Source: Erysipelotrichaceae bacterium
Lineage (GTDB): Bacteria; Bacillota_I; Bacilli_A; Erysipelotrichales; Erysipelotrichaceae
NCBI GenBank assembly: GCA_034180345.1
Contig: JAXFOQ010000040.1
Location: 6,265-70,264 of the forward strand
DNA: 64,000 nucleotides
Direction of reading: 5' to 3'
In this document: one piece after another, positions 8,192 through 35,632 of the stretch
How the letters are laid out: the number at the start of each line of letters is the position of its first letter
How positions within the stretch are numbered: position 1 is the first letter of the stretch
The notes under the pieces: generated by a model
Told to the model about the DNA's origin: nothing
What the model saw: the letters and a program-made list of their open reading frames with translations, nothing else
The model's database searches: none
Position numbers and translations under genes: made by a program

Positions 8192-10154
8192 AAAGTTTGA
8201 ATTAGTAAGTGATTATGAATTAAAGGGTGATCAAATCAAGGCTGTTGATTCTTTAGTCGAGGGCTTGAACAATCATCAAAAACATCAGGTTTTACTTGGG
8301 GTTACTGGCTCAGGTAAGACTTTTACTATTGCCAATGTCATTGCCAGAGTTAATAAGCCAACCATTGTCTTTGCCCACAACAAAACTCTTGCGGGTCAAT
8401 TGTATAGTGAATTTAAAGCACTGTTTCCTCATAACCGTGTAGAATACTTCGTATCTAATTTTGACTATTACCAACCAGAGGCGTATATGCCTAAAACAGA
8501 TACTTATATTGAAAAAACCGCTGATACCAATAAAGAATTGGATATGCTTAGAATGAGTACCTATAATTCAATGTTGGAACACTCAGATACGATAGTAGTT
8601 GCCAGTGTGGCCTGTATTTATGCTTCAAGTGATCCCGATAGTTATCGAGGAATGTTTTTTACGCTTAAAGTCGGTGAAGCCTTCGATCGGCAATCATTGA
8701 TTAAAAAATTAGTTTCTTTACAATATAAACGAAACAATACCGAACATATCCGCGGAACTTTCAGCGTTATTGGTGATAGTGTTGAAATAACCCCAGGACA
8801 TACTGAAGAATATTTGGTTAGAGTTGAATATTTTGATGATGAGATTGAACGAATTGTAGAAATTGACCCTTTATCTAAAAAAGTATTAAGAGGCTTTACT
8901 CTGTATAATTTCTTTCCTGCTGAGGCCTATGCCCGCGATATTGACGATATTCATAGTGCCTGTGAAAACATTGAAAAAGAATTAGAACAGCGCCTGCAAC
9001 ATTTCAAAGCCAAAAATCAAGCATTGGAATATGAACGCCTAGAACAACGAACCCGATATGATTTAGAAAGCTTGAGAGAATTTGGCTATTGCAGTGGTAT
9101 AGAAAATTATTCAATGCATATTGATAAGCGCAAACATGGTCAAAGACCATTTAATTTATTTGATTATTTTAAAGATGATTTTTTATTGGTTATTGATGAA
9201 AGCCATGTGTCATTGCCGCAGATTAGAGGGATGTTTAATGGCGACCGCGCTCGTAAACAAACATTGGTGGACTATGGTTTTAGATTGCCTAGTGCCTTGG
9301 ATAATCGTCCGATGACCTTTGAGGAATTTGTGGATATTGATTGTGATCGAATATATATCAGCGCCACCCCTGGCGACTATGAATTGGAGTTGGTTAATCA
9401 TCAGGTTATCGAGCAGATTATTAGACCTACGGGATTGGTGGATCCGAAATTAGAGGTTCGTAAGAGTTATGGTCAAATTGATGATTTATTGGAAGAAATT
9501 CATAAACAAATCACTAAAAATGAACGGACTTTAATCACTACTTTAACGGTTAAAATGGCTGAAGATTTAACGGCATTTTTGGTTAAACAGGGTATTAAGG
9601 TGGCTTATTTACATCATGAAACAAAGACTCTTGAACGAATCGAAACTATTTTAGATTTACGCAAGGGTAAAATTGATGTTTTAGTTGGCATTAATTTACT
9701 TCGTGAGGGTTTAGATTTACCTGAGGTTAGTTTAGTAGCTATTATCAATGCTGATAGTGAAGGCTTTTTAAGAAGTTATCGTTCACTTATTCAAACTATT
9801 GGTCGGGCTGCTAGAAACAGTGAAGGTAGGGTTATCATGTATGCTGATAATATTACTGATTCAATGAGGAAGGCCATTGATGAAACCAATCGTCGTCGAG
9901 AAATTCAAATTAAATATAATATTGAACACAACATCACTCCTAAGACGATTATTAAGACTATTAGTGAACCGATTCACGGCAAAGAAACCAAGAGGATGGC
10001 ACTTAAATATCAACATCGTAAAAAGAAAAATGCGGTCGATCAAAAACAATTTATTGAGAATTTAAGAATCGAGATGTGTGAAGCTGCCAAAGCATTAAAT
10101 TTTGAAAGAGCGATGGAATTAAGGGATGTTATTATGGAGATAGAAAATGAATAA
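8184..10154 (+). CDS. uvrB: excinuclease ABC subunit B
   Basis: GVTGSGKTFT Walker A, YYQPEAY beta-hairpin region, DESH box, and a C-terminal UVR motif (AAKALNFERAMELRD). Confidence 0.96.
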   Translation: MNKKFELVSDYELKGDQIKAVDSLVEGLNNHQKHQVLLGVTGSGKTFTIANVIARVNKPTIVFAHNKTLAGQLYSEFKALFPHNRVEYFVSNFDYYQPEAYMPKTDTYIEKTADTNKELDMLRMSTYNSMLEHSDTIVVASVACIYASSDPDSYRGMFFTLKVGEAFDRQSLIKKLVSLQYKRNNTEHIRGTFSVIGDSVEITPGHTEEYLVRVEYFDDEIERIVEIDPLSKKVLRGFTLYNFFPAEAYARDIDDIHSACENIEKELEQRLQHFKAKNQALEYERLEQRTRYDLESLREFGYCSGIENYSMHIDKRKHGQRPFNLFDYFKDDFLLVIDESHVSLPQIRGMFNGDRARKQTLVDYGFRLPSALDNRPMTFEEFVDIDCDRIYISATPGDYELELVNHQVIEQIIRPTGLVDPKLEVRKSYGQIDDLLEEIHKQITKNERTLITTLTVKMAEDLTAFLVKQGIKVAYLHHETKTLERIETILDLRKGKIDVLVGINLLREGLDLPEVSLVAIINADSEGFLRSYRSLIQTIGRAARNSEGRVIMYADNITDSMRKAIDETNRRREIQIKYNIEHNITPKTIIKTISEPIHGKETKRMALKYQHRKKKNAVDQKQFIENLRIEMCEAAKALNFERAMELRDVIMEIENE

Positions 10155-10737
10155 AATAACTTTAAAAAATAGTTTATATGGTTTAATTGGAGCAATAGTT
10201 TTAGGCTTCGGTATTGGTACATGGGACTTTGTGCGACTTGGCTTTGATTCGATTAATGTTTTTTATAATGCACTTTGTAATATTACAGGTTTATCGTTCT
10301 CGGCTATTAATTTTATTGGTGGGGCAGTGATGATTGTGGCCTGTATCATCATTGATCGTAAACAATTGGGAATTGCCACATTTATCAATGTTGTGATCAT
10401 CGCCTTAAGTATTAAGTACACAGGCTATTTTTATAGTCATTTTTATACTGATAATTTCTTTGTGAAGTTATTGATTCATTTTGTTGGTTTAAATGCCATT
10501 GCCCTTGGGGCAGCAATGATTGTGGTGTGTGATTTGGGTAAATCGCAATATGATGCCTTTGTTTTTGCGATTGCTTCAAAAAGTAAAAAATCATTTGTCT
10601 TTATCCGTTATATTGTTGATGGTGTGGCCTTAACACTAGGAATCTTATTAGGAGGAAGTTATGGTATTGGTACAATTATTGCCATCTTATTTATCGGTCA
10701 TTTAATGAAGCAATATATCAAGGTATTGAAAAGATGA
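10147..10737 (+). CDS. integral membrane protein (YczE/YitT-like)
   Basis: Six hydrophobic segments. Overlaps the uvrB stop and the miaA start. The family call is tentative. Confidence 0.5.
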   Translation: MNKITLKNSLYGLIGAIVLGFGIGTWDFVRLGFDSINVFYNALCNITGLSFSAINFIGGAVMIVACIIIDRKQLGIATFINVVIIALSIKYTGYFYSHFYTDNFFVKLLIHFVGLNAIALGAAMIVVCDLGKSQYDAFVFAIASKSKKSFVFIRYIVDGVALTLGILLGGSYGIGTIIAILFIGHLMKQYIKVLKR

Positions 10738-11630: not shown

Positions 11631-12318
11631 ATTATTAAGAATGGAAGCCTTAATCGGTAGTGATTGTTTAGATAATTTAAAAGCTGCTAAAGTGATGATT
11701 TGTGGAGTAGGCGGTGTCGGTAGTTTTGTTGCTGAAGCCTTGGCCCGTAGCGGTGTCGGTAAAATGGTGCTTATAGACTATGATGACATCGACATCAGCA
11801 ATCTTAACCGTCAACTTGAAACGGATATTAATAATATTGGTAAGTCCAAGGTGGAGGCAATGGCTAAACGAATTACAATGATCAGTGATTGTGAGGTCAG
11901 CTTCAGAAAAGAATACATTGATGAAAATTTTAGTTTAGCTGATGATTTAGACTATGTAATTGATTGCATCGACAGTCTTAATTCCAAATTGGTCTTGGCC
12001 AAATTGGCTAAACAAAAGGGTATTAGACACTTGGCCTCTATGGGAGCTGCTAAAAGAATAGAAGCTGGAAATATCATCTATTGTAATCTCGATAAAACTT
12101 TCAACGATCCTCTTGCGAGAAGGTTTCGTGAATTGGTTAAAAAAGAGCGTTATCAGCATAATATTAAGGTGGTATTTAGTGATTCTTTACCAATTAAGAC
12201 TAATTTTGGGTTATTACAAAAACAAAAAACGCTAGGAAGTTGTATAATGGTTACAGGTGCTATTGGACTTAAAATAGCCGAAGTTGTGCTTAAACAACTT
12301 ATGGAGGTAAAACGATGA
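11620..12318 (+). CDS. tcdA: ThiF/HesA-family tRNA threonylcarbamoyladenosine dehydratase
   Basis: GVGGVGS Rossmann motif, D..D..SNLNRQ, and overall TcdA/YrvM-like size. Confidence 0.75.
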   Translation: MQDKLLRMEALIGSDCLDNLKAAKVMICGVGGVGSFVAEALARSGVGKMVLIDYDDIDISNLNRQLETDINNIGKSKVEAMAKRITMISDCEVSFRKEYIDENFSLADDLDYVIDCIDSLNSKLVLAKLAKQKGIRHLASMGAAKRIEAGNIIYCNLDKTFNDPLARRFRELVKKERYQHNIKVVFSDSLPIKTNFGLLQKQKTLGSCIMVTGAIGLKIAEVVLKQLMEVKR

Positions 12319-14006
12319 AATTTAAAGATTTTGAATATCAAAGAATTAATTTTGAAACAATCGAAGAAACATTTAAACCCTTATTGAAAGAACTTGAGGA
12401 GGCTAAGGACAGCGTAACTTTTAATAAGGCGTTTAATAAGATTAATGAGTTTAGAAATCATATTACAACCCAAACGGTTTTGTGTAGTATTCGTCATGAT
12501 ATTAATACTAATGATGAATTTTATACTAAGGAAAATGATTATTGGGATGAGATTTTGCCGAAGGTACAGTTGTTCGACAATCTTTTCTATAAGATATGTC
12601 TTGCCTATCCTAGGCGTGATGAATTGAATATTCCTGATACTTTCTTTAAGATTGCTGAATTTTCATTAAAGAGTTTTGATGAAAAGATTATTGAAGAACT
12701 GCAATTAGAGAATAAATTAACCAGTGAATATACTAAATTAAAGGCTGGAGCCTTAATTGAATTAGATGGTAAGACCTATAATTTATCATCTTTGGGTCCT
12801 AAATTAAGCGACACTGACCGTGATGTTAGAAAGCGTGCTTATAAGGCTGTGAATGATTATTTTGAAAAACATGAGGCCGACTATGACCGTGTTTATGATG
12901 AATTGGTCAAGGTCAGAGATCGCATGGCTAAGAAATTAGGCTATGCCAACTATGTTGAAATGGGTTATATGCGTATGCAAAGAATTGGCTATGATAAGAA
13001 TATGGTGGCTAAGCTTCGCAAACAAGTATTAGAAGATATTGTGCCGATTGTCAGTGATATTTATGAGGCTCAACGCATAAGGCTGGGGCTTGATAAATTA
13101 ATGGAATACGATCGTTCACTTACTTTTTTAAGTGGTAATCCTACCCCTAAGGGAAGCAAGGATGAATTGGTTGCCAAGGCTTTGAATATGTATAAAGAAA
13201 TGTCGCCTGAAACTGGGGCCTTCTTTGAGATGATGGTCAACCATGATTTATTTGATTTAGAATCAAAGGATGGTAAAAATACAGGTGGTTACTGCACTGA
13301 TATTCCTGATCATAAAGTACCATTTATTTATGCCAACTTTAATGGTACTGCTGGTGATGTCGATGTTTTAACTCATGAAGCAGGTCATGCCTTCCAAGCC
13401 TATATGACCGCTAGGAGTAACACCATTCCTGAATGCGCCTTCCCAACGATGGAAACTGCAGAAATTCATTCAATGAGTATGGAATTTTTTGCCTATCCTT
13501 GGATTGAAGACTTTTTCAAGGAAGATAGTATCAAATATCGTTACAAACATATTAGTGGTACCCTTAAATTTTTACCTTATGGTGTTCTTGTGGATCACTT
13601 CCAACATGAAGTATATGAAAATCCAGAAATGAGTATCGCTGATCGTAAGGCAACATGGAAGAAATTAGAAGCGATGTATGAACCATTTATAAACTATGAA
13701 GATGATGATTTTGCGGCTAAGGGTACCTTCTGGTATCGACAAGGTCATATCTTCCAATCTCCTTTCTACTATATTGATTACTGTATTGCTCAACTTTGTG
13801 CATTACAATTTTTCAACCGTAGTCTGATTAAAGATGAAGGAACTTGGGAAGATTATTTAACGATTTGTCGCAATGGTGGTACTAAGAATTTCCTCGAGAA
13901 TGTTGCTGATGCTCACCTTGATTCACCATTTGAAGAAGGAAGCATTGCGAAAATTATCGGCAATATCGTGTCAGAATTAAATAAATATGATGTTTCAAAG
14001 TATTAG
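12315..14006 (+). CDS. pepF: M3B-family oligoendopeptidase (PepF-like)
   Basis: HEAGHAF zinc motif with a downstream E; ~560 aa, typical of oligoendopeptidase F-type enzymes. Confidence 0.8.
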   Translation: MKFKDFEYQRINFETIEETFKPLLKELEEAKDSVTFNKAFNKINEFRNHITTQTVLCSIRHDINTNDEFYTKENDYWDEILPKVQLFDNLFYKICLAYPRRDELNIPDTFFKIAEFSLKSFDEKIIEELQLENKLTSEYTKLKAGALIELDGKTYNLSSLGPKLSDTDRDVRKRAYKAVNDYFEKHEADYDRVYDELVKVRDRMAKKLGYANYVEMGYMRMQRIGYDKNMVAKLRKQVLEDIVPIVSDIYEAQRIRLGLDKLMEYDRSLTFLSGNPTPKGSKDELVAKALNMYKEMSPETGAFFEMMVNHDLFDLESKDGKNTGGYCTDIPDHKVPFIYANFNGTAGDVDVLTHEAGHAFQAYMTARSNTIPECAFPTMETAEIHSMSMEFFAYPWIEDFFKEDSIKYRYKHISGTLKFLPYGVLVDHFQHEVYENPEMSIADRKATWKKLEAMYEPFINYEDDDFAAKGTFWYRQGHIFQSPFYYIDYCIAQLCALQFFNRSLIKDEGTWEDYLTICRNGGTKNFLENVADAHLDSPFEEGSIAKIIGNIVSELNKYDVSKY

Positions 14007-14015
14007 GAGGTACAG

Positions 14016-14717
14016 ATGAACAATTATAATTATGATTATATCGAAGAAGAAAGAAGTATTGATTTAAATCGTTATCTTGTTTCAACTTTCGGATTATTGG
14101 CAGCAGGACTTGCACTATCAACGCTAGCTGGGGCAGTAATCAGCAGATATTTTTTAGGTTTACTTTTTGAAAATCGAGCTTTTATCTTGATTGCGATCAT
14201 GGTTCAATTGGCACTTGTGATTAATTTATCCGCAAGAATTACCAAGATGGAAACCGTTACTGCTTGGCTTAGTTACTTCGGTTATTGTTTAATTACTGGA
14301 ATTAACTTTGCGTTTTTGATGTTGTCATTTGAAATAACTTCAATGGTTATGGCCTTTGGTATGACAGCTGTGGTTTTTACTTCTATGGCTATTATTGGGC
14401 TTACAGGCAAAGTTGATTTTACGAAATTTGGTAGTTATTTTTTGGTGGGCTTATTAGCGATTATCATCATCAGTATTTTAAATGTCTTCTTCTTTAAAGC
14501 TGAAGGATTAAGCTTATTTGTTTTATACGGTGGAGTAATTTTGTTTTTAGGTTTAACAGCTTATGATGTTCAAAAAATTAGAAACATCTATTATGAAGTC
14601 CAACATGATGATAAGTTAAGAAATAATTTTATGGTTTATGGAGCCTTTCAGTTGTATCTTGATTTTGTTAATTTATTTATTTATATCCTAAGAATTTTTG
14701 GTCGAAGAAGAAATTAA
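14016..14717 (+). CDS. Bax inhibitor-1/YccA-family membrane protein
   Basis: Seven TM segments and a C-terminal basic tail (GRRRN). The AYDVQKI motif is typical of the BI-1 family. Confidence 0.8.
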   Translation: MNNYNYDYIEEERSIDLNRYLVSTFGLLAAGLALSTLAGAVISRYFLGLLFENRAFILIAIMVQLALVINLSARITKMETVTAWLSYFGYCLITGINFAFLMLSFEITSMVMAFGMTAVVFTSMAIIGLTGKVDFTKFGSYFLVGLLAIIIISILNVFFFKAEGLSLFVLYGGVILFLGLTAYDVQKIRNIYYEVQHDDKLRNNFMVYGAFQLYLDFVNLFIYILRIFGRRRN

Positions 14718-17288: not shown

Positions 17289-17873
17289 ATGTACAAATTA
17301 GATGAATATTATTTAGGGTTTGATATAGGAACAAATTCTGTCGGTTGGGCAGTTACTGACAACAAATATAAGGTATTAAAATTTAATGGAAAATCTATGT
17401 GGGGTGTTCGGATGTTTGATGAAGGTAAAACAGCTTTAGAACGCCGAACTTTCAGAGCTGTCAGAAGAAGAAAAGAAAGACAAAAATTTAGATTAAGTTT
17501 ACTTGAAGATTTATTTAAAGATGAAATTTCTAAAAAAGATATGGGTTTTTTTATGCGTTTAAAAGAAAGCGCTTACTACAAGGAAGATAAAAGTATATGC
17601 CAAAAGAATGCGCTATTCAATGATATTAATTATAAAGATAAAGACTATCATAAAGAATATCCGACCATTCACCATTTGATTAAACATATTATAGATGATA
17701 AAAGTCCTGTTGATATTCGCTTGCTATTTCTTGCGATTCATTATTTAATAAAAAATCGAGGGCATTTTCTATTTGCTGGAAATTTTAAAATTGAAGGATC
17801 GTTTAATGAACTTTTCAATAATCTAAAGAAAACGATTGAAGATGATTTGGGTATAGTTTTGATTGTGATTTAG
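17289..17873 (+). CDS. cas9: Cas9, N-terminal fragment (RuvC-I, arginine-rich bridge helix); frame ends prematurely
   Basis: YLGFDIGTNSVGWAV (RuvC-I catalytic Asp), RRTFRAVRRRKERQKFR bridge helix, and YPTIHHLI..NRGHFLF. The frame stops at TAG 17871-17873, while homology continues in the -1 frame. Confidence 0.9.
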   Translation: MYKLDEYYLGFDIGTNSVGWAVTDNKYKVLKFNGKSMWGVRMFDEGKTALERRTFRAVRRRKERQKFRLSLLEDLFKDEISKKDMGFFMRLKESAYYKEDKSICQKNALFNDINYKDKDYHKEYPTIHHLIKHIIDDKSPVDIRLLFLAIHYLIKNRGHFLFAGNFKIEGSFNELFNNLKKTIEDDLGIVLIVI

Positions 17874-20800
17874 ACAAAATCGAAAAAATTTTAGGAGATA
17901 AATCACTCGGTATTACCAGAAAAAAAGAAAGTTTGATTAAAGAAATCAAAATTGATTCAAATGATAAAACTGCTAAAGAGATAATTAAAGCTATCTGTAA
18001 TTTATTAAGTGGTGGTAAAGAATCAATCAAAAAAATATTTTCTGATGTGGAAAATGAAGATGTTGCTAAAATTCAATTTTCTTCTGCCAATTATGATGAG
18101 GATAAAGATAAACTTGAGGCTGTTTTAAATGAAAAAATACTTTTAATTGAACAATTAAAAGCCCTATATGATTGGTCGGTGCTGGAAGAAATGCTAAAAT
18201 TTGCCGATGCAGATAAAGATGGGATAAAACGCATTTCATCGGCGAAAGTAAATATTTATAATCAACATAAAGATGATTTGAAAAAATTAAAAAAGGTTAT
18301 TAAAAATCATTATACTGCAAAAGATTACAATGATATTTTCCGTTCTAAAAATATCGAAAATAACTATGTTTTATATAGTGGCAAACCAATTATAAATTCT
18401 AAAAATAAGGTTATTACAAATTGTACTCAAGCGGAATTTTGTGATTTTTTAAAAAAGAATTATTTTAATAAAGATTTTGATGATGACTTATATAAAGAGG
18501 TCAAAGAAAAAGTTGTCAATGGAATTTTACTTCCCAAGCAAGTTAATTCTGGCAATGGAGTTATTCCATATCAACTAAAAAAGGCCGACTTAATTAAAAT
18601 GCTAGATAATGCAGAAAAATATTTTGAATTTTTAAAGGTTAGTGATAACTATGGAAGTGTAAAAGATAAAATAATTAAATTAATGGAATTCCGTATTCCA
18701 TATTATATCGGACCGATAAATCCTTATCATAAAGACGGGATTCACTGTTGGGTTGAAAGAAAAATTGAGCATGAAAAAGTAATGCCTTGGAATTTTAACG
18801 ATGTTATCGATGTGGAAACTACCAGGGAAAAATTTATTACTACTAGAACCAATAAATGTACTTATCTTTTGGGGGAAGATGTATTACCGAAAGAATCACT
18901 TTTATATTCTGAATTTATGATTTTAAATGAATTGAATAATTTACGCTTTAGCGGTAAAACATTAGATGAAATTAATTCAGGATTAAAATCAGAAATATTT
19001 AATCATTTATATAAAAAGGAAAGAAAAGTAACAATCAATAAAATTAAAGAATTGATGAAATGCAAGGGGATTAATACTGAAGATTTAGTTGTTTCAGGTG
19101 TAAATGGTGATTTAAAAGCTAATTATAAGTCGTATTTAGATTTTAATTTTATATTAGGTAATGAAATTGAAAAAGAGAATACTAAAAATATGATAGAAGA
19201 TATCATTAAATATATTGTTATTTTTGGTGCAGAAAAACAAGTATTGAAAGAAATGCTAAAAAAGAAATTTGGAGATAATTTAACAAATGATCAAATTAAA
19301 AAAATAGTTAAATTAAATTACAAAGAATGGGGAAGATTATCTCGTAAATTATTAACGGGCATTGAAGGTATAGATAATAATACTGGCGAATATACCAGTA
19401 TTATTGGAATGATGCGTAGTACTAATAATATTTTTATGGAATTATTATCAAAGGATAAATATACCTTTTTAGCTGAAATTGAAAAAAATAACAATCCAAA
19501 AAATATTGATAAGTTAAAATATGAAGTTTTAGATGATTTATATGTTTCTCCTGCTGTAAAAAGATCTTTATGGCAAACACTTAAAATCACAAACGAAGTG
19601 GTTAAAATTATGAAACACTCTCCTAAAAAGGTTTTTATAGAGATGACAAGAGAACATTCTGATAATCATAATCAAAAAGATTCTCGAAAAGAATTTTTAA
19701 AGAAAATATATAGTAAATTAGAAGATGAGTACAAGGATGTCGGACAATGTTGCGATAAAATCGAAGATCGAAGATTTAGAAGTGATAGAATATTTTTATA
19801 TTTTACACAACTAGGAAGATGTGCATATTCAAATAGAACTATAGATTTTGAAGATATTTTCAATGAAAATATTTACGACATTGATCATATTTATCCTAAG
19901 TCAAAATTTTATGATGACGGAATTGATAATAAAGTTTTAGTTTTGAAAGAATATAATGCTAAAAAAGATAATAAATACCCACTTGTTGATGAATTATCTC
20001 ATTTCCGTCAAGAAAGATTATGGAAGATTTTGCGCCAAAAAGAACTTATTTCAGAAAAGAAATATCAACGCTTAATGCGTAAAGAACCTTTTAGCGATAA
20101 GGAGTTAAGTGAATTTATTGCTAGGCAGCTTGTAGAAACTAGTCAATCAGCTAAAGCTTCTGCTGAAATATTGAAAAATTATTTAACAAAGAATAATGAA
20201 GAAACTGAAATTGTTTATGTAAAAGCTGGCAATGTTTCGCGTTTTAGACAATATTTTGATTTGATCAAATGTCGTGATATTAACGATTTTCACCACGCAC
20301 ATGATGCCTATTTAAATATTGTGGTAGGCAATGTTTATAACACTAAATTTACAAAAAGCCCACAAAATTTTATTAAGGAAAGCTCGAAAAATAGAAATTA
20401 TAATATTGATATTAAAGCGAACTTTATTCATGATATTAAAAGAGGCGATGTTGTTGCTTGGAAAGAAAATGAGTCGATTAAAATCGTTAAGAAGCAAATG
20501 CTTAACAATAATATTCAAACATCATATCAAAGTCAGATTAAAATCGGACAATTTTATGATCAAAATATAGTTGGGAAAGATTCCGCAAAATGCCCTATTA
20601 AAGGTAAAGGGGTTATTAGTGATTTATCTAAATATGGTGGTTATAGCGGGATTCGTTCTTCTTATTTTTCATTGATTGAATATAAACAAAAAAATAAAAA
20701 TATTAGAAGAATTGAAAGTGTACCATCTTATATTGCTTCAAGAATTGAAAAAGATTATAAATTATTGGAATTATATTTTAAAGAATTGTTATCTACAACT

Positions 20801-21361
20801 GAAGTTAAAATTTTGATTGATAAAATTAAAATTGGTACAGAATTAATTTATGGGGGATTTAAATATAAAATTAATGGTAATGATAAACAAAATTTGATTA
20901 TTTGCCCTGTAATTCAATTGATATTAGAAAAGAATCAATATAATTATTATAAAAAGATTAGCTCATTTTTAAATAAGATGTCTTCAAATAAAAATATTGA
21001 AGTAGATGAAATTAAAGACAAAATTTCTGTAAAAGAAAATGTCGACTTTTATCAGACTTTAATTAATAAAATTGATAATTCAATTTTTAGTAATAGGGTT
21101 AATAATCAAAATAAAGATATAAAAAATGGTTTTGAAATATTTAAAAATCTTTCTATTAAAGATCAAATTTTGGCATTGAGTGAATTATTAAAAATCTTTA
21201 AGGCTAAACCAATAAATCCAAATTTTTCATTGATAAATGGTTCTAAAAGTATTGCTGTACCAAGAATTTCAAAAAATTTGAACTGCAAAAATACTTATAA
21301 ATTGGTTTATAAATCGGTTACTGGTTTGTTTGAGGAGGTAATAGATTTAAATAAAATATGA
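17846..21361 (+). CDS. cas9: Cas9, remainder (REC, RuvC-II, HNH, RuvC-III, PI) in the -1 frame relative to the N-terminal fragment
   Basis: This frame is open from 17846 (TGA at 17843-17845). IPYYIGP; HNH motif DIDHIYPKS..DN-KVL; RuvC-III DINDFHHAHDAYLN. The stop overlaps the cas1 ATG. The track starts it at TTG 17933, but there is no independent SD. Confidence 0.9.
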   Translation, partial: FGYSFDCDLDKIEKILGDKSLGITRKKESLIKEIKIDSNDKTAKEIIKAICNLLSGGKESIKKIFSDVENEDVAKIQFSSANYDEDKDKLEAVLNEKILLIEQLKALYDWSVLEEMLKFADADKDGIKRISSAKVNIYNQHKDDLKKLKKVIKNHYTAKDYNDIFRSKNIENNYVLYSGKPIINSKNKVITNCTQAEFCDFLKKNYFNKDFDDDLYKEVKEKVVNGILLPKQVNSGNGVIPYQLKKADLIKMLDNAEKYFEFLKVSDNYGSVKDKIIKLMEFRIPYYIGPINPYHKDGIHCWVERKIEHEKVMPWNFNDVIDVETTREKFITTRTNKCTYLLGEDVLPKESLLYSEFMILNELNNLRFSGKTLDEINSGLKSEIFNHLYKKERKVTINKIKELMKCKGINTEDLVVSGVNGDLKANYKSYLDFNFILGNEIEKENTKNMIEDIIKYIVIFGAEKQVLKEMLKKKFGDNLTNDQIKKIVKLNYKEWGRLSRKLLTGIEGIDNNTGEYTSIIGMMRSTNNIFMELLSKDKYTFLAEIEKNNNPKNIDKLKYEVLDDLYVSPAVKRSLWQTLKITNEVVKIMKHSPKKVFIEMTREHSDNHNQKDSRKEFLKKIYSKLEDEYKDVGQCCDKIEDRRFRSDRIFLYFTQLGRCAYSNRTIDFEDIFNENIYDIDHIYPKSKFYDDGIDNKVLVLKEYNAKKDNKYPLVDELSHFRQERLWKILRQKELISEKKYQRLMRKEPFSDKELSEFIARQLVETSQSAKASAEILKNYLTKNNEETEIVYVKAGNVSRFRQYFDLIKCRDINDFHHAHDAYLNIVVGNVYNTKFTKSPQNFIKESSKNRNYNIDIKANFIHDIKRGDVVAWKENESIKIVKKQMLNNNIQTSYQSQIKIGQFYDQNIVGKDSAKCPIKGKGVISDLSKYGGYSGIRSSYFSLIEYKQKNKNIRRIESVPSYIASRIEKDYKLLELYFKELLSTTEVKILIDKIKIGTELIYGGFKYKINGNDKQNLIICPVIQLILEKNQYNYYKKISSFLNKMSSNKNIEVDEIKDKISVKENVDFYQTLINKIDNSIFSNRVNNQNKDIKNGFEIFKNLSIKDQILALSELLKIFKAKPINPNFSLINGSKSIAVPRISKNLNCKNTYKLVYKSVTGLFEEVIDLNKI

Positions 21362-23272: not shown

Positions 23273-23968
23273 GTTTGAGAGTTGTGTAGTTTATTAGGGA
23301 TCAAAAACTAATACCTCCTGACAGTATAAGTAAAGATAGTTTGAGAGTTGTGTAGTTTATTAGGGATCAAAAACAAAAATAAATGCACTATGACGCTAAC
23401 CTTTGTTTGAGAGTTGTGTAGTTTATTAGGGATCAAAAACATAACCACTTTGATAGTAAGGCTCTTGATAGTTTGAGAGTTGTGTAGTTTATTAGGGATC
23501 AAAAACACAAAATAATTGAATTTGTCTTTATTATTTGTTTGAGAGTTGTGTAGTTTATTAGGGATCAAAAACTAATGCACAGCTCCACGCTTTTGATACT
23601 CAGTTTGAGAGTTGTGTAGTTTATTAGGGATCAAAAACCAGATAAGAATTATAAAGTAGATGACCGCAGTTTGAGAGTTGTGTAGTTTATTAGGGATCAA
23701 AAACTTTGAATCCGCAGTTAAATCATCTTCCCACGTTTGAGAGTTGTGTAGTTTATTAGGGATCAAAAACCCATTTACTAATGGTCGGAGTGGCTCTACT
23801 GTTTGAGAGTTGTGTAGTTTATTAGGGATCAAAAACCCAGCTTATGACGCACTATATATCGAATTAGTTTGAGAGTTGTGTAGTTTATTAGTGATCAAAA
23901 ACGTATTAAACAAAAGATTTTTGATAGCTTTTGTTTGAGAGTTGTGGGTTTGTGATCTGATAGGGATA
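23273..23968 (+). CRISPR. type II-A CRISPR array: 11 x 36-nt repeats (last degenerate), 10 x 30-nt spacers
   Basis: The repeat GTTTGAGAGTTGTGTAGTTTATTAGGGATCAAAAAC occurs at 23273 and then every 66 nt, with exact periodicity. Repeat 10 carries G>T at 23892. Repeat 11 (23933-23968) keeps only the first 14 nt. Confidence 0.98.
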
Positions 23969-24080: not shown

Positions 24081-25124
24081 ATGGATAAAAAAGATGAAAT
24101 GATGATTGTAAATCATGAATCCCTTGTAAAAAAGATTTATATTATTAGGGGACAAAAGGTGATGCTTGACTTTGAATTAGCCGAAATCTATGGATATGAA
24201 ACAAAGGCTTTTAATCAGCAAGTAAAAAGGAATATTGAAAAATTTGATGAAGACTTTATGTTCCGATTAACCGACGAAGAAGTATCTGAACTTTCAAGGT
24301 CACAAAATGTGACCTTGAACAAGAGTGCAGGAAGAGGTAGTAATATTAAGTACAATCCTCATGCCTTTACCGAGCAGGGAATCTATATGCTGATGACAGT
24401 TCTCAAAGGAGAGCTTGCGGTCAAGCAGAGTAAAGCTCTGATTCGTACCTTTAAGAAGATGAAAGACTATATCGTAGAAAATCAAGGGTTGATTGGGAAA
24501 AGAGAGTTTTTGCAGCTTTCGATGCAGATTACAAGCAATGTCGTGGAAATGCAGGATTTAAGACGAGATTTAAGAGATGTGGAAGATCAGGTGGCGGAAG
24601 TGATGGACACCTTAAATAATGTGGTGCATAAATCCGAACTGTCTGATTTGATCCTTGATCTCAGCAATCCGCAACTCAAATACGGATTTTTACTCTTGAA
24701 CGGACAACCGATTGAAGCAAATCTTGCTTATAAGGACATTTACAGCATAGCGAAAAAGAGTATCTATATCGTCGATAACTACATCGGAGTGAAAACTTTG
24801 GTCTTGCTAAAAGATGTCCCTTCATCGGTAGAGGTCATTATATTCAGCGATAACATCGGCAAAGGACTTCATACCCTTGAATATCAGGACTTCTGTCAAG
24901 AATATCCGTTTAGAAAGATAAGATTCCAAAAATCCGGTGGAGAGTTTCATGACAGATACATTTTTATCGACTGGAATACCGAACATCAACGAATCTATCA
25001 TTGTGGAGCGTCCTCCAAAGATGCAGGACAAAGAATCACAAGCATAACAGAAGTGGTCGATCAGATGATTTATACCGACCTTATCAATAATCTCTTGAAA
25101 AATCCGGTGTTGCAGTTAAAATAG
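24081..25124 (+). CDS. ORF6N/KilA-N-like DNA-binding domain protein with C-terminal PLD-like (HxR..D..GxS) domain
   Basis: The N-terminus IYIIRGQKVMLDFELAEIYGYETKAFNQQVKRNIEKFDEDFMFRL..HAFTEQGIYMLMTVLKG is the ORF6N signature. A helical linker follows. The C-terminus SIYIVDNYIG..FHDRYIFID..HCGASSKD resembles an HKD-type motif. A good AGAGGA SD is present. Confidence 0.7.
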   Translation: MDKKDEMMIVNHESLVKKIYIIRGQKVMLDFELAEIYGYETKAFNQQVKRNIEKFDEDFMFRLTDEEVSELSRSQNVTLNKSAGRGSNIKYNPHAFTEQGIYMLMTVLKGELAVKQSKALIRTFKKMKDYIVENQGLIGKREFLQLSMQITSNVVEMQDLRRDLRDVEDQVAEVMDTLNNVVHKSELSDLILDLSNPQLKYGFLLLNGQPIEANLAYKDIYSIAKKSIYIVDNYIGVKTLVLLKDVPSSVEVIIFSDNIGKGLHTLEYQDFCQEYPFRKIRFQKSGGEFHDRYIFIDWNTEHQRIYHCGASSKDAGQRITSITEVVDQMIYTDLINNLLKNPVLQLK

Positions 25125-25287
25125 AAGTGGAAAATGGGTTGAAAATTTTAAAAAATATGTATCCAATCCTTGACACAAGGGTGGAAAATAAAATAGTAAA
25201 TATTTTTAAGAAGGCTTATTTAGTATCGTAAAAGTGCATTTTTTATCGAGCAATTAATTTTGGCATCTAAATTTATTTTTATTAAAG

Positions 25288-25296
25288 TGATACAAT
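25288..25296 (+). promoter_or_regulatory. extended -10 promoter element for the helicase-nuclease gene
   Basis: TGATACAAT (TG-N-TACAAT) lies 24 nt upstream of the ATG at 25320. A GGGG SD-like run is at 25311-25314. Confidence 0.4.
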
Positions 25297-25319
25297 ATAT
25301 ATGGAAATATGGGGTAGAT

Positions 25320-28061
25320 ATGAACACTGAAAATAATATGATTATCATTAAAGGTGAAATAAAAACTTCTGATGTAAAATCGTGTAAATATGATGGTAAT
25401 ATTAATAAATGGACTGTAAAATTTAATAATGAAAAACCATATTTTTATGAATTTCATAATTTAGAAAAATTAATCAAACCAAAAGTTTTAAATAAAAATA
25501 TGTATCGTATAAAAAATAAAGGTGTGGAATTATTCGATATTAAAGATATACGCGTTTTTGAGGGTAAAAATGACAAATATTGGCATATTTGTTTTGATAA
25601 CGGAAGTAAAAAAGATTATCGTGAGAAAGAATTAGAAATATTTGAATCAGTTTTAAATGAAAAAGAATCTTCAAATGTATTTGAATACATAAAACAAATT
25701 GCGGAATTAAATGAAATTGTAAATGATTTAACTGGTGAAAAAATATTAATTAAAAAATATAATAATTTAACATTTTTAAGTAACGATGTAGTTTTGTCAA
25801 AATATTTGAACCCTACCTTATTGAAAAATAGAAAGTCAAATATAGATTATAAACCAATTTTTCCTTTTGGATGTAATAATAGTCAATACACCGCAGTGAA
25901 AAGTGCTATGGAGAATCAAATTAGTGTTATTCAGGGACCTCCTGGAACAGGAAAAACACAAACAATATTAAATATTATTGCCAATATATTGATACAAGAT
26001 AAAACAGTTCAGATAGTTTCTAATAATAATTCTGCTACTGCAAACATTTATGATAAATTATCTTCTAATAAATATGGTTTAGGCTTTATTGTTGCAATTT
26101 TAGGCAATGAGAATAATAAAAAAATCTTTATAGAACAACAAAATAAAAATTATCCTGATTTTTCTACTTGGAAAATAGAAAAAGATTTAATTGAGGAATT
26201 ACAAAAATCAGTTCCAGAGCAATTCATAAAATTAAAAGAAATTTTTGATAAGCAAGAAAAATTAGCATATTTAAAACAGGAATTTTCACAATTAAGTACA
26301 GAACAGGAATATTTTAATCAATATTCTAATAATTCAGATGTAAATTTTGAAAAAATAAAATTTAAGAAAAATTTGCATTCAAATTCTGTAATGAAATTAC
26401 TACAAGAGTGTCAATCGATTTCAGAAAATAAAAAAACAATAGGATTTTTATTTAAAGTAAAATCTTTTTTTACATGCGGAATAAAAGACCGCAGTATATA
26501 TAATCAAGATATTTCAAATATAATTATTGTATTTCAATATATGTATTATTATGCAAAAAATAATGAATTATTGTCAGAAATTGATGTTCTTGAAAAATAT
26601 TTGGATAATGCCGATGGAACTTTACTTGATAATTTATGCGAAGAGTCAATGAAAATATTAAAGGACAAACTCGTGAGAAAATATGAAGTTAATGATAGTC
26701 GCAAAATATTTAATGAAGATAGTTTTCGGGAAGAATCTAATAAGATTTTAGAAGAATATCCCGTTATATTAAGTACAACATTCTCATCGACAAATAGTTT
26801 AAATTCTCATATTATATATGATTATTTAATTATTGATGAAGCATCACAAGTGGATATAGCTACAGGTGCATTAGCTCTTTCTTGTGCAAAAAATGTTGTT
26901 ATTGTAGGCGATACTAAACAATTGCCAAATATTGTTAATAATGATGTGAAATCTAAGGCAAATGCAATATTTGATAGTTTTAATCTCAATGAAGGGTATA
27001 GATATACAAAAAGTTTTTTACAGTCTGTTATTGATGTATTTTCAGATTCAAAGATACCAAAAACATTATTAAGAGAACATTATAGATGTCATCCGAAAAT
27101 AATTAATTTTTGCAATCAAAAATTTTATAATGGCGATTTAGTTATAATGACAAAAGACAAAGGTGAAAAAGATGTTTTATCAGTAATTAAAACTGCGGTT
27201 GGTAATCATGTGCGCGATAATTATAGTCAGCGTCAAATAGATGTAATTAAACAAGAAGTACTCGCAAAATATAATTTAGATATGGATAAAACAGGAATTA
27301 TAACACCATATAGAAATCAAGTTAATGCCTTGCATAATGACATTGAGAATGTAAATGCTGATACAGTGCACAAATTTCAAGGAAAAGAAAAAGATAATAT
27401 TATTATATCGACAGTAGATGATGAGATAACAGATTTTGTAGATGATCCATTTTTAATTAATGTGGCCGTATCTAGGGCTAAAAATAAATTGATATTAGTT
27501 ACAACTGGAAATGAACAAAATAAAGAACGGAATATAACGGATTTAATTGACTATATTAAGTATAATAATTTTGAGGTTAAAGATAGTAATGTTTATTCAA
27601 TTTTTGATTATTTATATAAACAATATGATAAAAAAAGAATTTTATATTTAAAAAAACATAAAAAAATATCTGAATATGATTCAGAAAACTTAATGTATTT
27701 GCTAATTGAAGAAATTATTGCGGATAGTAGATATAGTGATTTAGATGTAGTTTATCATTATCCATTGAAAATGTTGATTCAGAATACGGCATTATTAAAT
27801 GAAGAAGAATATAAATATGCTATGAATCCATTAACACATTTAGATTTTTTGATATATAACAAAATTGGTAAAAAACCAGTTTTAGCAATTGAGGTTGATG
27901 GATACAGGTATCATGAAGAATATACAGTGCAATCTTCACGCGATTTATTAAAAGATCATTTGCTAGAATTATATGATATTCCACTACTAAGATTTAAGAC
28001 AAATGGTAGCAAAGAAAAAGAAATAATTATTGATATGTTAGAAAAGATAATTTCATCATAA
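25320..28061 (+). CDS. SF1 (Upf1/DNA2-like) helicase fused to C-terminal DUF2726/Vsr-like PD-(D/E)xK nuclease, with unknown ~200 aa N-terminal domain
   Basis: Walker A GPPGTGKT (25935-25958), DEASQ, GDTKQLP, REHYRCHPKIINF, TVHKFQGKEKD, and VAVSRAKNKL. The C-terminus HLDFLIYN..LAIEVDGYRYH..IPLLRF has E878 at 27891. Start is set at the ATG at 25320; the track ORF begins at an upstream TTG at 25260. Confidence 0.85.
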   Translation: MNTENNMIIIKGEIKTSDVKSCKYDGNINKWTVKFNNEKPYFYEFHNLEKLIKPKVLNKNMYRIKNKGVELFDIKDIRVFEGKNDKYWHICFDNGSKKDYREKELEIFESVLNEKESSNVFEYIKQIAELNEIVNDLTGEKILIKKYNNLTFLSNDVVLSKYLNPTLLKNRKSNIDYKPIFPFGCNNSQYTAVKSAMENQISVIQGPPGTGKTQTILNIIANILIQDKTVQIVSNNNSATANIYDKLSSNKYGLGFIVAILGNENNKKIFIEQQNKNYPDFSTWKIEKDLIEELQKSVPEQFIKLKEIFDKQEKLAYLKQEFSQLSTEQEYFNQYSNNSDVNFEKIKFKKNLHSNSVMKLLQECQSISENKKTIGFLFKVKSFFTCGIKDRSIYNQDISNIIIVFQYMYYYAKNNELLSEIDVLEKYLDNADGTLLDNLCEESMKILKDKLVRKYEVNDSRKIFNEDSFREESNKILEEYPVILSTTFSSTNSLNSHIIYDYLIIDEASQVDIATGALALSCAKNVVIVGDTKQLPNIVNNDVKSKANAIFDSFNLNEGYRYTKSFLQSVIDVFSDSKIPKTLLREHYRCHPKIINFCNQKFYNGDLVIMTKDKGEKDVLSVIKTAVGNHVRDNYSQRQIDVIKQEVLAKYNLDMDKTGIITPYRNQVNALHNDIENVNADTVHKFQGKEKDNIIISTVDDEITDFVDDPFLINVAVSRAKNKLILVTTGNEQNKERNITDLIDYIKYNNFEVKDSNVYSIFDYLYKQYDKKRILYLKKHKKISEYDSENLMYLLIEEIIADSRYSDLDVVYHYPLKMLIQNTALLNEEEYKYAMNPLTHLDFLIYNKIGKKPVLAIEVDGYRYHEEYTVQSSRDLLKDHLLELYDIPLLRFKTNGSKEKEIIIDMLEKIISS

Positions 28062-32132: not shown

Positions 32133-32462
32133 ATGGGAAAATGTCCAAATTGCGGAGCGCCAATGGTTGACCATAGATGTGAATATTGTGGTTATAATGT
32201 GGTTGCAGAAAATAATCATAGTAGTGTTCATAATTATTATTTCTTTGAAAAGGAAAGAAAAAGTCGTAAAAATAAGGTAATTGCATTCATTTTGTGTTTT
32301 TTCTTTGGGATAAGTGGTGTCCATTATTTTTATGTTGGAAGATTTGGCAAGGGATTACTTTATTTTTTTACGGGTGGTTTATTTTCCATTGGTTGGATTT
32401 TAGATATATTTTCAATCGCCAGTGGTAATTTTAAAGATGCTGATGGCTTGCTATTAAAATAG
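32133..32462 (+). CDS. zinc-ribbon + TM2 domain membrane protein
   Basis: CPNCGAP..CEYCG zinc ribbon followed by two TM helices carrying GVHYFYVGRFGKG..GWILD (TM2 domain). Confidence 0.75.
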   Translation: MGKCPNCGAPMVDHRCEYCGYNVVAENNHSSVHNYYFFEKERKSRKNKVIAFILCFFFGISGVHYFYVGRFGKGLLYFFTGGLFSIGWILDIFSIASGNFKDADGLLLK

Positions 32463-32469
32463 GCTAGGT

Positions 32470-33318
32470 ATGTATTTTTTAGATAATATAAAGAATAAAT
32501 TTACAGAAGTTATTGAATTTGCCGACAACAACAATAAGCTGGTAATTTATAAATATCACCATCAACGCCGTCGTAATCAAATTAAAATCGGACTTAATTT
32601 AGTTGTTAAAGAAGGCCAAAAAGCCATCATTATTAAAGATGGCATCATCGAAGAAATATATGATCCTGGCACACATACGATGGAAATTAATAATCATGTT
32701 CTTTTTGATATTGTAAAATCTTCATTTAATTGTTTAGATGAAACCAAGATGGCTGATTTATATTTTGTGAATATGGGTTCAATCATCGACAATAAATGGG
32801 CCACCAAATCACCAGTGCTTAAAAAAGATCTTGAGTTAGGAATGGTTAGAGTCAGATCATTTGGCAAATTTTCATTTAAGATTGATGATCTTCAACTTTT
32901 TATTAATGAAATATTTAGAAGTAATAATTTAACCTTATCTTATGATATTATTCAATACTTGACGGTCATGGTTGCTGAAGCCTTTGCCCAGATAATCATT
33001 GATGAGGGAATACCAATTTTAAATATATTATCTAATTATGATGAAATTGGTAATAGTGTTTGTGATCGTGTTAATAGCTTGGCCAATAGAATTGGTATTG
33101 AATTTACTTCAGTGATTATCGAAAGTATTTCCTTGCCTGAGCATGTTGAAAAATTAATTGATGAACAATTCGTTTCTAATTTTGGTCAAAATAATATTTC
33201 TCCGACTATTAAAGATAATGATGTTGAAAGACTTAGAGAGCTAAAATTATTATTGAATGAGGGAATTATTACTCAAGCAGAATTTGATTTAAAGAAGAAA
33301 CAAATTTTAAAAATATAA
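32470..33318 (+). CDS. SPFH-domain protein (YdjI-like) with C-terminal SHOCT motif
   Basis: The IEFADNN..KIGLNLVVKEGQKAIIIKDG..VRVRSFGKFSFKI pattern matches YdjI-type SPFH proteins. The C-terminal LLNEGIITQAEFDLKKKQIL is a SHOCT motif. Confidence 0.65.
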   Translation: MYFLDNIKNKFTEVIEFADNNNKLVIYKYHHQRRRNQIKIGLNLVVKEGQKAIIIKDGIIEEIYDPGTHTMEINNHVLFDIVKSSFNCLDETKMADLYFVNMGSIIDNKWATKSPVLKKDLELGMVRVRSFGKFSFKIDDLQLFINEIFRSNNLTLSYDIIQYLTVMVAEAFAQIIIDEGIPILNILSNYDEIGNSVCDRVNSLANRIGIEFTSVIIESISLPEHVEKLIDEQFVSNFGQNNISPTIKDNDVERLRELKLLLNEGIITQAEFDLKKKQILKI

Positions 33319-34636: not shown

Positions 34637-35632
34637 ATGAATTATACTGATAGTATGAAAGAGAAAAAGACAAGTATCTTGGCTGTTTACGAAATATTAA
34701 AAATACATTCTGATGAAGATCACATTATTAATTGTGGCTTTATTATGGAAAAATTAAAGGGTATCTATGATATTGCATTAGATCGCCGCACAATATATAA
34801 GAATATTGAAATGTTGATTGAATATGGTTATGATATTTCAACATACGAAGAAAATAAAAAGGGCTATTTTTTAAGAAAAAGGCAATTTGAAAAATCGGAA
34901 GTATTTTTATTATGCAATGTTATTCATTCATCAAATTTAATTCCTCAGCATAATTCTAAAGAATTAATTGATAAGATTTTAGATTCACAAAACGAATATG
35001 TTAAGAGTGATTTTCGTAATCAGGTATATATTGATAATACTGATAAAAAAGAAAATAAAGAATTTTTCTATACAATCGAAATACTTAGTGAAGCCATTAA
35101 AAATCATAAAGTTATCAATTTTGATTATGTTAAATACAATCATGAGTTGAAGTTGGTTAAGCGTCGAGATGAAAAATATTATCTATCACCATATTATTTA
35201 GTCTATATGAATGAAAGAACATATTTAATTGGTAAAAGTGCTAATCATCATGATCTGGTTCATTATCGTATTGATAAGATTAAAAACATTGAAATTGATG
35301 AGGAAGGCCTATATCTTAAGCCTGACCACAACCAAGACCCTTATATTTATGCCAAGAATAAAATGTATATGTATGGTGGTGATGAACTTACAGTTGCCTT
35401 GCTTTGTGATTATCAAATTCTTGATGATATGGTTGATATTTTTGGCAAAAATATCACAATCATTGAAAAGGATCCTGAACATTTTATCATCCGTGTTAAT
35501 AGCACAATGCAGGGAATGTTATACCTATCTTTACAATATTTAGAACATATGGAAGTGCTTGAACCCAATGATTTAAAAGTTAAAATTATTGACACTTTAA
35601 ACCGTGGTTTAAATAGATATAATGAAAATTAA
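34637..35632 (+). CDS. wHTH-WYL-WCX transcriptional regulator
   Basis: N-terminal winged HTH (ILAVYEIL..DRRTIYKNIEMLIEYGY), a WYL core (YYLSPYYLVYMNERTYLIG..HYRIDKI), and a C-terminal WCX-like domain. Confidence 0.8.
   Translation: MNYTDSMKEKKTSILAVYEILKIHSDEDHIINCGFIMEKLKGIYDIALDRRTIYKNIEMLIEYGYDISTYEENKKGYFLRKRQFEKSEVFLLCNVIHSSNLIPQHNSKELIDKILDSQNEYVKSDFRNQVYIDNTDKKENKEFFYTIEILSEAIKNHKVINFDYVKYNHELKLVKRRDEKYYLSPYYLVYMNERTYLIGKSANHHDLVHYRIDKIKNIEIDEEGLYLKPDHNQDPYIYAKNKMYMYGGDELTVALLCDYQILDDMVDIFGKNITIIEKDPEHFIIRVNSTMQGMLYLSLQYLEHMEVLEPNDLKVKIIDTLNRGLNRYNEN

Follow-up and report, generated by a model that had tools for sequence, protein, structure and literature searches.

Hhe is reportedly a single-gene defence protein in which a helicase is joined to a Vsr-like endonuclease. 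Nhi, Hna and HmaA each combine an ATP-driven helicase and a nuclease on one protein, and both activities are required for defence (PMC11232893). DUF2726 is a PD-(D/E)xK nuclease family of the Vsr group that is tied to mobile elements, and an earlier survey found its genes ringed by such elements in Fusobacteria (PMC3424549); it has also been described as a DNase of the restriction endonuclease fold that is joined to defence-associated, Abi-type N-terminal domains (PMC3710099). The gene considered here lies in a 64,000-nucleotide stretch of an Erysipelotrichaceae genome (assembly GCA_034180345.1, contig JAXFOQ010000040.1, positions 6,265 to 70,264), referred to below as the window. Its coding sequence (25320..28061, + strand, stop codon included) is complete and intact and encodes a helicase-nuclease of 913 residues, which resembles Hhe, Mokosh, Nhi and DNA2 in outline but, as judged by sequence comparison, belongs to none of them. 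The family that it represents is widespread, horizontally mobile and annotated only as "AAA domain-containing protein", and is plausibly a candidate for a solitary helicase-nuclease defence protein. Because helicase-nuclease fusions are common in defence islands, such a protein will be of little surprise to the specialist.

Three-part architecture of the helicase-nuclease

A first inspection of the letters alone (the sequence-only reading) had read from the open reading frame (ORF) a protein of about 913 residues with an unassigned N-terminus, a complete Upf1/DNA2-type superfamily 1 (SF1) helicase and, at the C-terminus, a DUF2726/Vsr-like nuclease. This anatomy stands, and all of the motifs that it quoted occur at the expected places within 25320-28061 on the + strand, on which every feature of the gene lies: GPPGTGKT (residues 206-213), DEASQ (506-510), GDTKQLP (530-536), HYRCHP (587-592), HKFQGKEKD (684-692) and VAVSRAK (715-721) in the helicase, and HLDFLIYN (840-847), AIEVDGYRYH (856-865) and IPLLRF (887-892) in the nuclease.

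The helicase core, located by Pfam, PDB and Foldseek searches, spans residues 180-735 (25857..27524) and includes motif Q, Walker A, Walker B and motifs III-VI. With motifs Q and I-VI present and Pfam matches above the gathering thresholds (AAA_11 at 185-539, 1.1e-28, 101.2 bits against a cut-off of 27; AAA_12 at 572-728, 8.3e-24, 84.7 bits against 27), it is by its sequence features a complete Upf1-like SF1B motor. The PDB sequence search matched DNA2, IGHMBP2, Sen1 and Upf1, while Foldseek with the full-length AlphaFold model retrieved IGHMBP2 (1.9e-12) as well as Upf1, SETX, Aquarius, DNA2 and ZNFX1. Movement in the 5'->3' direction on single-stranded nucleic acid is predicted from superfamily membership. 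The AAA_11 match covers 355 residues for a profile of 257 positions because a helical insertion of about 195 residues interrupts RecA1 (residues 286-480; 26175..26759; from the AAA_11 span and the AlphaFold2 model). The helices of this insertion (288-336, 354-370, 398-429 and 435-455) are modelled in the full-length structure with a predicted local distance difference test score (pLDDT) of about 80-90, and it is placed where Upf1-like helicases have domain 1C, or the "prong". The full-length model is otherwise poor (mean pLDDT 68.6, predicted TM-score 0.45, with RecA1b-RecA2 below 50), probably because the full-length homologues used were all about 67% identical, and it confirms only the Upf1-like helicase class.

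The C-terminal domain (residues 787-909; 27678..28046) is a Vsr/DUF559-like PD-(D/E)xK endonuclease assigned by Pfam to DUF2726 (1e-9, 38.6 bits against a gathering cut-off of 24.7), the match to MTES_1575 being weak. It carries the Vsr/DUF559-type signature HLDF...IEVDG..YH...RD..K...LLRF, and the catalytic D...E-x-D...H/K residues are present. Stand-alone DUF2726 proteins have this nuclease fold and these catalytic residues in common with the helicase-nuclease; the difference is that DUF2726 here forms the effector end of a 913-residue helicase fusion.

Residues 1-184 match nothing in Pfam, PADLOC, NCBIfam or PHROGs, so that the N-terminus remains unassigned as first described. It is also, as described, rich in lysine and asparagine (15% K, 12.5% N) and beta-rich in the AlphaFold2 model. 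That model, of residues 1-178, was built from an alignment of 54 fragments with 25-56% identity and is confident (mean pLDDT 90.9); the structural check that had been proposed for this region thus returned a defined fold of tandem SH3/Tudor/KOW-like barrels followed by helices. Repeat 1 (residues 6-57; 25335..25490; pLDDT about 96) and repeat 2 (residues 62-110; 25503..25649), the latter holding KYWHICFDNGSKKDY at residues 86-100, are each five-stranded beta modules of the SH3/Tudor/KOW-like kind. They match one another in a profile-profile comparison (hhalign probability 89.7%, E 1.8e-6), and by this measure the pair is an internal duplication. A helical connector (residues 111-179; 25650..25856), modelled with helices at 115-130, 142-149 and 158-168, leads from the barrels to the helicase; Y123 is invariant in it among homologues, and L143 and Y162 are nearly so.

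At E<=1e-3, Foldseek with the N-domain model matched nothing in the PDB or in BFVD. The leading resemblances are generic (TM-score 0.2-0.3) and include 53BP1 and other tandem Tudor domains, with further weak matches to phage endolysin SH3 repeats, the KOW-bearing ribosomal protein eS4 and phage KOW proteins. Thus the modelled fold class is one of tandem SH3/Tudor/KOW-like barrels with no specific structural relative. Query residue 181 aligns to IGHMBP2 residue 186 in the PDB sequence search, and the N-domain and connector, which make up the approximately 180 residues before motif Q, may from their position be equivalent to the 1B barrel and stalk of Upf1 and IGHMBP2. Identity with the Upf1 1B barrel itself could not be demonstrated, Foldseek detecting no similarity between the two. 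The N-terminus had earlier been called sensor-like; this was inference only and is not upheld, because the domain sits at the location of the 1B barrel and stalk and may be a helicase accessory domain rather than a dedicated sensor.

Comparison with described systems

The best PADLOC models for the protein are MkoA (1.3e-52), MkoC (6.9e-45), PDC-S37 and Hhe (2.7e-21), all of which match helicase segments only, and its homologues in Escherichia coli, Ralstonia and Bacteroides give the same pattern. In likeness to Hhe, it is a stand-alone polypeptide, occurs in defence islands and places an AAA_11/AAA_12 SF1 helicase before a C-terminal PD-(D/E)xK nuclease of the Vsr/DUF559 clan. However, Hhe proteins are about 1,800-1,900 residues long with a DUF4011 N-terminal half, whereas members of the present family have about 910 residues with their own tandem-barrel N-domain, and their nuclease best fits DUF2726 rather than MTES_1575/DUF559. 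The PADLOC Hhe match (PDLC02194) consists of two short stretches, and the NCBIfam Hhe model (NF042953), whose cut-off is 2000 bits, gives only 85.9, its best stretch aligning residues 497-617 with positions 1279-1391 of a 1797-position profile. No DUF4011 match is found by Pfam at E<=0.1. The earlier suggestion of an Hhe-like identity therefore fails, the profile matches being confined to helicase motifs, while the doubt voiced with it, that the protein was too short for Hhe, was well placed: 913 residues is half the Hhe length.

Mokosh offers a similar Upf1-like helicase core. Of the 1112 positions in the PADLOC MkoA profile, the 913-residue protein matches 547-1099 and leaves the N-terminal half unmatched. 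The Mokosh nuclease is a phospholipase D (PLD) type, separate in MkoB or fused in MkoC, in contrast to the PD-(D/E)xK nuclease of this family. Pfam finds no PLDc domain in the protein, and its neighbours in the window are an ORF6N gene and zwf, with no adjoining PLD gene. Nhi, which was also proposed as a relative, can be set aside: PADLOC gives no Nhi match at E<=0.1, and in Nhi (about 610 residues) the nuclease is N-terminal and precedes a DUF2075/Viral_helicase1 SF1 helicase, the opposite order. Nhi, Hna and HmaA do share with it the union of helicase and nuclease on a single protein, but Hna and HmaA have SF2 helicases and neither was detected by PADLOC in its sequence. The NCBIfam models for the anti-phage helicase families ProA (127.2 bits against a cut-off of 1500) and PLuB (105.1 against 999) match helicase motifs only.

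Among the eukaryotic relatives, IGHMBP2, Upf1, Sen1/SETX and DNA2 share the motif set, a module before RecA1 (1B barrel and stalk) and an insertion in RecA1 (1C/prong), although the N-module of the family is a duplicated small barrel without detectable similarity to 1B. The nuclease of DNA2 is N-terminal, RecB-like and iron-sulfur-bearing, whereas that of the family is C-terminal and Vsr-like; the N-terminus of the 913-residue protein is a tandem beta-barrel in which no nuclease motif was found, so a DNA2-type assignment fails. The sequence-only reading had allowed that the protein might fall within a family already characterised; the comparisons with Hhe, Mokosh, Nhi, ProA, PLuB and DNA2-type enzymes all speak against this.

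Conservation and distribution of the family

Conservation was assessed by aligning 23 homologues whose identity to the query is 41-68%. The invariant residues of the helicase are G206-T213 in Walker A, D506, E507 and Q510 in Walker B, G530, D531 and Q534 in motif III, E586-C590 in motif IV, T682, K685, Q687, G688 and E690 in motif V, and V715-A720 in motif VI; those of the nuclease are S788, E789, N790, D842, E858, D860, H865, R874, D875, K878 and R891. Because the catalytic residues are invariant, strict purifying selection acts on both predicted enzymatic activities. Mean pairwise identity is 55-61% in the RecA segments and 55% in the nuclease, as against 27% in the N-barrels, 28% in the connector and 23.5% in the insertion. 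Thus the accessory modules, namely the N-barrels with the connector and the insertion, evolve at about twice the rate of the catalytic cores, the insertion fastest of all.

An exhaustive HMMER search with the N-domain returned 411 cluster representatives at 50% identity, and in full-length proteins, which have about 900-930 residues, it is always N-terminal. Ten diverse representatives were checked with Pfam, of which eight have about 910-930 residues and the same three-part layout; all 9 of the ten that are complete and unfused show this architecture. A representative of 1172 residues, probably fused by read-through with a topoisomerase gene, has a full DUF2726; another, of 1111 residues, has the same layout with N- and C-terminal extensions and also a full DUF2726; a third, of 960 residues, lacks a DUF2726 match and matches AAA_12 only in part. 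Apart from these three longer proteins, the full-length HMMER matches include no N-domain in another architecture.

A word-indexed search with the whole protein gave more than 7,000 matches. The top 120 are all about 909 residues long, 66-69% identical and from Lachnospiraceae/Clostridia gut assemblies, and are named "AAA family ATPase" at most. A pattern scan of GTDB, with one genome per species (185,579 species), confirmed the family in at least 534 species, which are mostly Lachnospiraceae but also include Fusobacterium, Succinivibrio, Schwartzia, Gastranaerophilales and Bacteroides metagenome-assembled genomes (MAGs). The three-part architecture is conserved across three phyla, with Bacteroidota and Proteobacteria represented. 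On plasmid records, tblastn located full-length homologues in Bacteroides finegoldii (50% identity), Parabacteroides (40%) and the megaplasmids of Ralstonia and Caballeronia, and an E. coli homologue of 33% identity that spans residues 8-894. The E. coli, Ralstonia and Bacteroides homologues have the same architecture, and the family N-domain profile recognises the E. coli and Ralstonia N-termini with hhalign probabilities of 97.8% and 96.7%, respectively.

Of 5,426 complete E. coli genomes, 648 (12%) carry the gene, which is labelled only "AAA domain-containing protein". Its product has 893 residues and the same three-part layout, as at 7992-10673 of locus L093 (pB39_V) and 12001-14682 of locus L096 (O104:H4). 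In the O157:H7 records listed, the match crosses two features ("AAA domain-containing protein | hypothetical protein"), and the homologue may be split in these. Across mobile elements as a whole carriage is sparse: 18 of 72,556 plasmid records, several of them megaplasmids or chromids, and 2 of 50,697 phage records, the latter as partial matches.

The gene in the window is a compositional outlier, as are the neighbouring cas genes. Its GC content is 24.2% and its GC content at third codon positions (GC3) 14%, against 30.6% GC for the whole window and a GC3 of 24-28% for the flanking housekeeping genes. This disparity in GC3, together with about 67% identity to thousands of Lachnospiraceae copies, indicates that the helicase-nuclease was acquired by horizontal transfer. 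The earlier remark on its very low GC is correct insofar as the gene is an outlier; its claim to the lowest GC in the window fails, since csn2 has 18.5% GC and lower values also occur in several 500-nt segments of the cas genes.

Genomic neighbourhoods of family members

Neighbouring genes were surveyed by crude ORF calls across 72 GTDB loci. No gene is a universal neighbour in this set, the largest neighbour cluster being present in about 16 of the 72 loci, which agrees with the earlier description of a stand-alone gene without a conserved partner. The helicase-nuclease itself is intact in 63 loci and split by frameshifts in about eight. Split or truncated copies, about one in nine, are found at L012, L023, L037, L042, L044, L063, L077, L085 and L088, with examples of 444+470 and 186+713 residues. 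This suggests that family members are often inactivated, as would be expected of a dispensable and possibly costly gene.

Recognisable defence genes occur in about 7 of 11 contexts inspected, the type II-A CRISPR-Cas locus of the window among them, so that the anticipated proximity of homologues to defence genes is often observed. The other contexts combine, by Pfam, Mrr with HTH-NUDIX, SLFN_AlbA_2 and AbiH; Mrr with YhcG and Phd/ParE; a PLD-DEAD-DUF3427 helicase; and N6_Mtase/Eco57I with HNH, SLFN_AlbA_2 and an integrase. Hachiman (HamA/HamB) and Wadjet (JetC/JetD, with AAA_13/PIN_12) are represented as well. In the remaining 4 of the 11 no recognisable defence genes were found, three being ordinary or uninformative and one an E. 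coli island rich in insertion sequences (IS); the E. coli copy in that island adjoins a PAPS-reductase/ParB gene pair. Among 149 neighbour-cluster representatives, PADLOC matched MTase_II, mREase_IV, JetD, a type I S subunit and several PDC candidates, and the commonest Pfam families were GNAT acetyltransferases and AraC regulators. Residence of the family in defence islands is thus frequent, not universal.

Three neighbours recur in some lineages. A His_Phos_1 gene (198 residues) lies 10-28 nt upstream in about 16 of the 72 loci, all of one sub-lineage; at L005-L009, L090 and L092 it occupies about 7376-7990, and one of these loci is otherwise housekeeping. A gene for an HTH_26+NUDIX protein of about 235 residues lies just downstream in 12 of the 72 loci, often with SLFN_AlbA_2/HATPase_c_4 proteins (13878-14594 at L001, 11878-12585 at L005, 10757-11464 at L097). 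An Mrr_cat gene neighbours the helicase-nuclease in 4 of the 72. In Lachnospiraceae the region that holds the HTH_26+NUDIX gene lies downstream of guaA and behaves like a variable hotspot for defence genes.

Proposed function and alternative explanations

We favour, at a probability of roughly 0.55, the reading that the gene encodes a self-contained helicase-nuclease that protects against invading phage or other mobile DNA, that is, a putative single-gene immune enzyme. This reading rests on two intact catalytic modules, fast-evolving accessory modules, stand-alone inheritance, mobility and residence in defence islands. The accessory modules at the 1B/stalk and 1C positions would hold the enzyme inactive or confer specificity for a substrate or trigger. 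Candidate cues are a single-stranded 5' tail, an intermediate of replication or recombination, an RNA or R-loop, and a phage protein. Upon its cue the motor would load and translocate 5'->3' with ATP, and the tethered Vsr-like nuclease would nick or cleave the tracked DNA, either destroying the invader directly or causing DNA damage sufficient for abortive infection.

Several points weigh against this reading. The association with defence genes is qualitative, the count of about 7 in 11 contexts having no background control; several family copies lie amid housekeeping genes; and the genes found most often beside them encode GNAT acetyltransferases, a histidine phosphatase and a NUDIX protein. 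Substrate, polarity and trigger are predicted from family membership only, and the packing of the domains is unreadable from the full-length model. No DUF2726-helicase fusion is described in the literature searched, subscription-only papers being outside its scope, and DUF2726 itself is treated there only in the two contexts named at the outset. More weakly, the E. coli homologue, despite its presence in 12% of genomes, was not found in the main text or the available supplementary files of a defence screen (PMC13092281); another recent E. coli screen left out single-gene candidates (PMC13069673).

An unlikely alternative is an accessory repair or recombination enzyme that acts on host DNA, processing 5' flaps, ends, R-loops or stalled forks in the manner of DNA2 or AddAB. 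DNA2, IGHMBP2, Sen1/SETX and Upf1 are the nearest solved relatives, a true repair enzyme exists among Vsr-type nucleases (PMC3424549), and some copies keep housekeeping company, uvrB being 15 kb away in the window, though unlinked. A host repair function, however, accords poorly with the small, patchy share of species and the 12% of E. coli strains that carry the family, with horizontal transfer, deviant composition and frequent pseudogenisation, and with placement in variable islands alongside restriction, Abi, Hachiman and Wadjet genes; fast-evolving accessory domains are likewise atypical for core repair enzymes.

It is similarly doubtful that the gene serves a mobile element through plasmid or integrative and conjugative element (ICE) exclusion, post-segregational addiction or processing of the element's own DNA. 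Copies do lie beside an integrase, in IS-rich E. coli islands and on plasmid-typed records, with fragments on two gut "phage" contigs; the copy in the window adjoins a highly mobile ORF6N anti-repressor-like gene; and DUF2726 genes occur amid mobile elements in Fusobacteria (PMC3424549). Yet the plasmid and phage records with a homologue are the few counted above, most copies are chromosomal, and no consistent element backbone surrounds them. This alternative also overlaps with the defence reading, as anti-plasmid activity would still be immunity.

Bacterial helicases such as UvrD/PcrA, Mfd and RapA dock on RNA polymerase via a fold that resembles tandem Tudor/KOW-like barrels. The barrels of the N-domain, taken together with a core that lies near RNA and R-loop helicases (Sen1/SETX, Upf1, IGHMBP2 and MkoA of Mokosh), make it conceivable, though we judge it quite improbable, that the protein is a transcription- or RNA-coupled sensor that tracks phage transcripts or R-loops while its Vsr-like domain nicks the template DNA. 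If true, it would be a bacterial surveillance helicase in the style of Sen1/Upf1 wired to a DNA nuclease, a defence logic not yet described.

We consider it very unlikely that the protein is half of a multi-gene system, with the ORF6N protein as partner in the window and His_Phos_1, Mrr-like or HTH-NUDIX proteins as partners elsewhere. The His_Phos_1 gene, as close as 10 nt and found even in an otherwise housekeeping locus, may encode a lineage-specific accessory partner; an Mrr_cat gene follows the helicase-nuclease by 17 nt in one lineage, and the HTH-NUDIX gene recurs downstream. However, all three are absent from the window, and neighbours are unique in most loci. The ORF6N gene was rejected as a partner: it has a GC3 of 42% against 14%, its protein belongs to a 90%-identity cluster of 950 members against 2 for the helicase-nuclease, and none of the other contexts inspected contains it. 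A short member of Hhe, Mokosh type II or Nhi can be dismissed as extremely improbable, since the shared Hhe module types and strong PADLOC values come down to helicase motifs far below the NCBIfam cut-offs, in a protein of half the Hhe length with no DUF4011, PLD domain or Nhi match.

Should the preferred reading of a single-gene immune enzyme hold, the family would be a compact helicase-nuclease system of about 910 residues that abounds in the Lachnospiraceae of the human gut and is carried by about one in eight E. coli genomes, yet is recognised neither by PADLOC v2 nor by the anti-phage models of NCBIfam. Through the E. coli homologue the family can be tested directly in a standard host, and the invariant cores with two fast-evolving modules at the 1B and 1C positions are a tractable case for the specificity of helicase-nuclease immunity. 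Among the mutants proposed earlier, numbered in the 933-residue frame, the Walker A lysine should read K232 instead of K231, and E878 and D880 stand as given. Even if not protective, the family is a large unannotated one in which "AAA domain-containing protein" can be replaced by a precise domain description.

The gene and its surroundings in the window

The longest ORF at the locus in the ORF listing of the window (25260..28061, + strand) starts at a TTG and has 933 codons' worth of residues, whereas the ATG at 25320 gives 913 residues and the same N-terminus as the homologues; the 913-residue protein can be aligned over its whole length with homologues of about 909 residues. A Shine-Dalgarno-like GGGGT (tGGGGtag; 25311..25315, + strand), read from the sequence 5 nt before the ATG, supports 25320 as the probable true start in preference to the TTG at 25260. 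The product is identical to NCBI MDY6063275.1 (913 residues, "AAA domain-containing protein") of an Erysipelotrichaceae MAG. A promoter-like site found by consensus scan only (TTGACA, a 16-nt spacer and AATAGT; 25170..25197, + strand) falls within the 195 nt that separate the ORF6N gene from the helicase-nuclease gene and suggests that the latter may have its own promoter, the scan having found 43 such sites against 35 expected, which is near chance in this AT-rich region.

The gene is preceded by a type II-A CRISPR-Cas locus (cas9, cas1, cas2, csn2), a CRISPR array (23273-23946) and the ORF6N gene, and is followed on the opposite strand by zwf, gnd and a lactonase gene. Upstream of cas9 all is housekeeping, including ftsEX, a pcsB-like gene, ctpA, uvrB, miaA and pepF. 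The defence island claimed for the window is limited to the CRISPR-Cas locus and the ORF6N gene, the flanks beyond being housekeeping. The cas9 gene (17289-21361) is broken by a single frameshift with its junction at about 17850-17870: the first frame stops at "...DDLGIVLIVI*", and Cas9 sequence resumes at "YSFDCDLDKIEKIL..." in the frame of the ORF at 17933..21361. It is either a pseudogene or the product of an assembly error. The genes cas1, cas2 and csn2 and the array of about 10 repeats appear intact.

The ORF6N-domain protein (24081-25124; 347 residues) is anti-repressor-like in PHROGs and has no Pfam match in its C-terminal half (about 190-347); its gene has a GC content of 37.6% and a GC3 of 42% in a genome of 30% GC. 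Because its cluster at 90% identity has 950 members, the gene is a mobile one that has spread very recently and widely. Further along the window, Pfam matches on an identical Logan contig identify a gene with a TM2 domain, then a Band_7/SHOCT gene (32133-33318 together), and a WYL-domain regulator gene (34637-35632).

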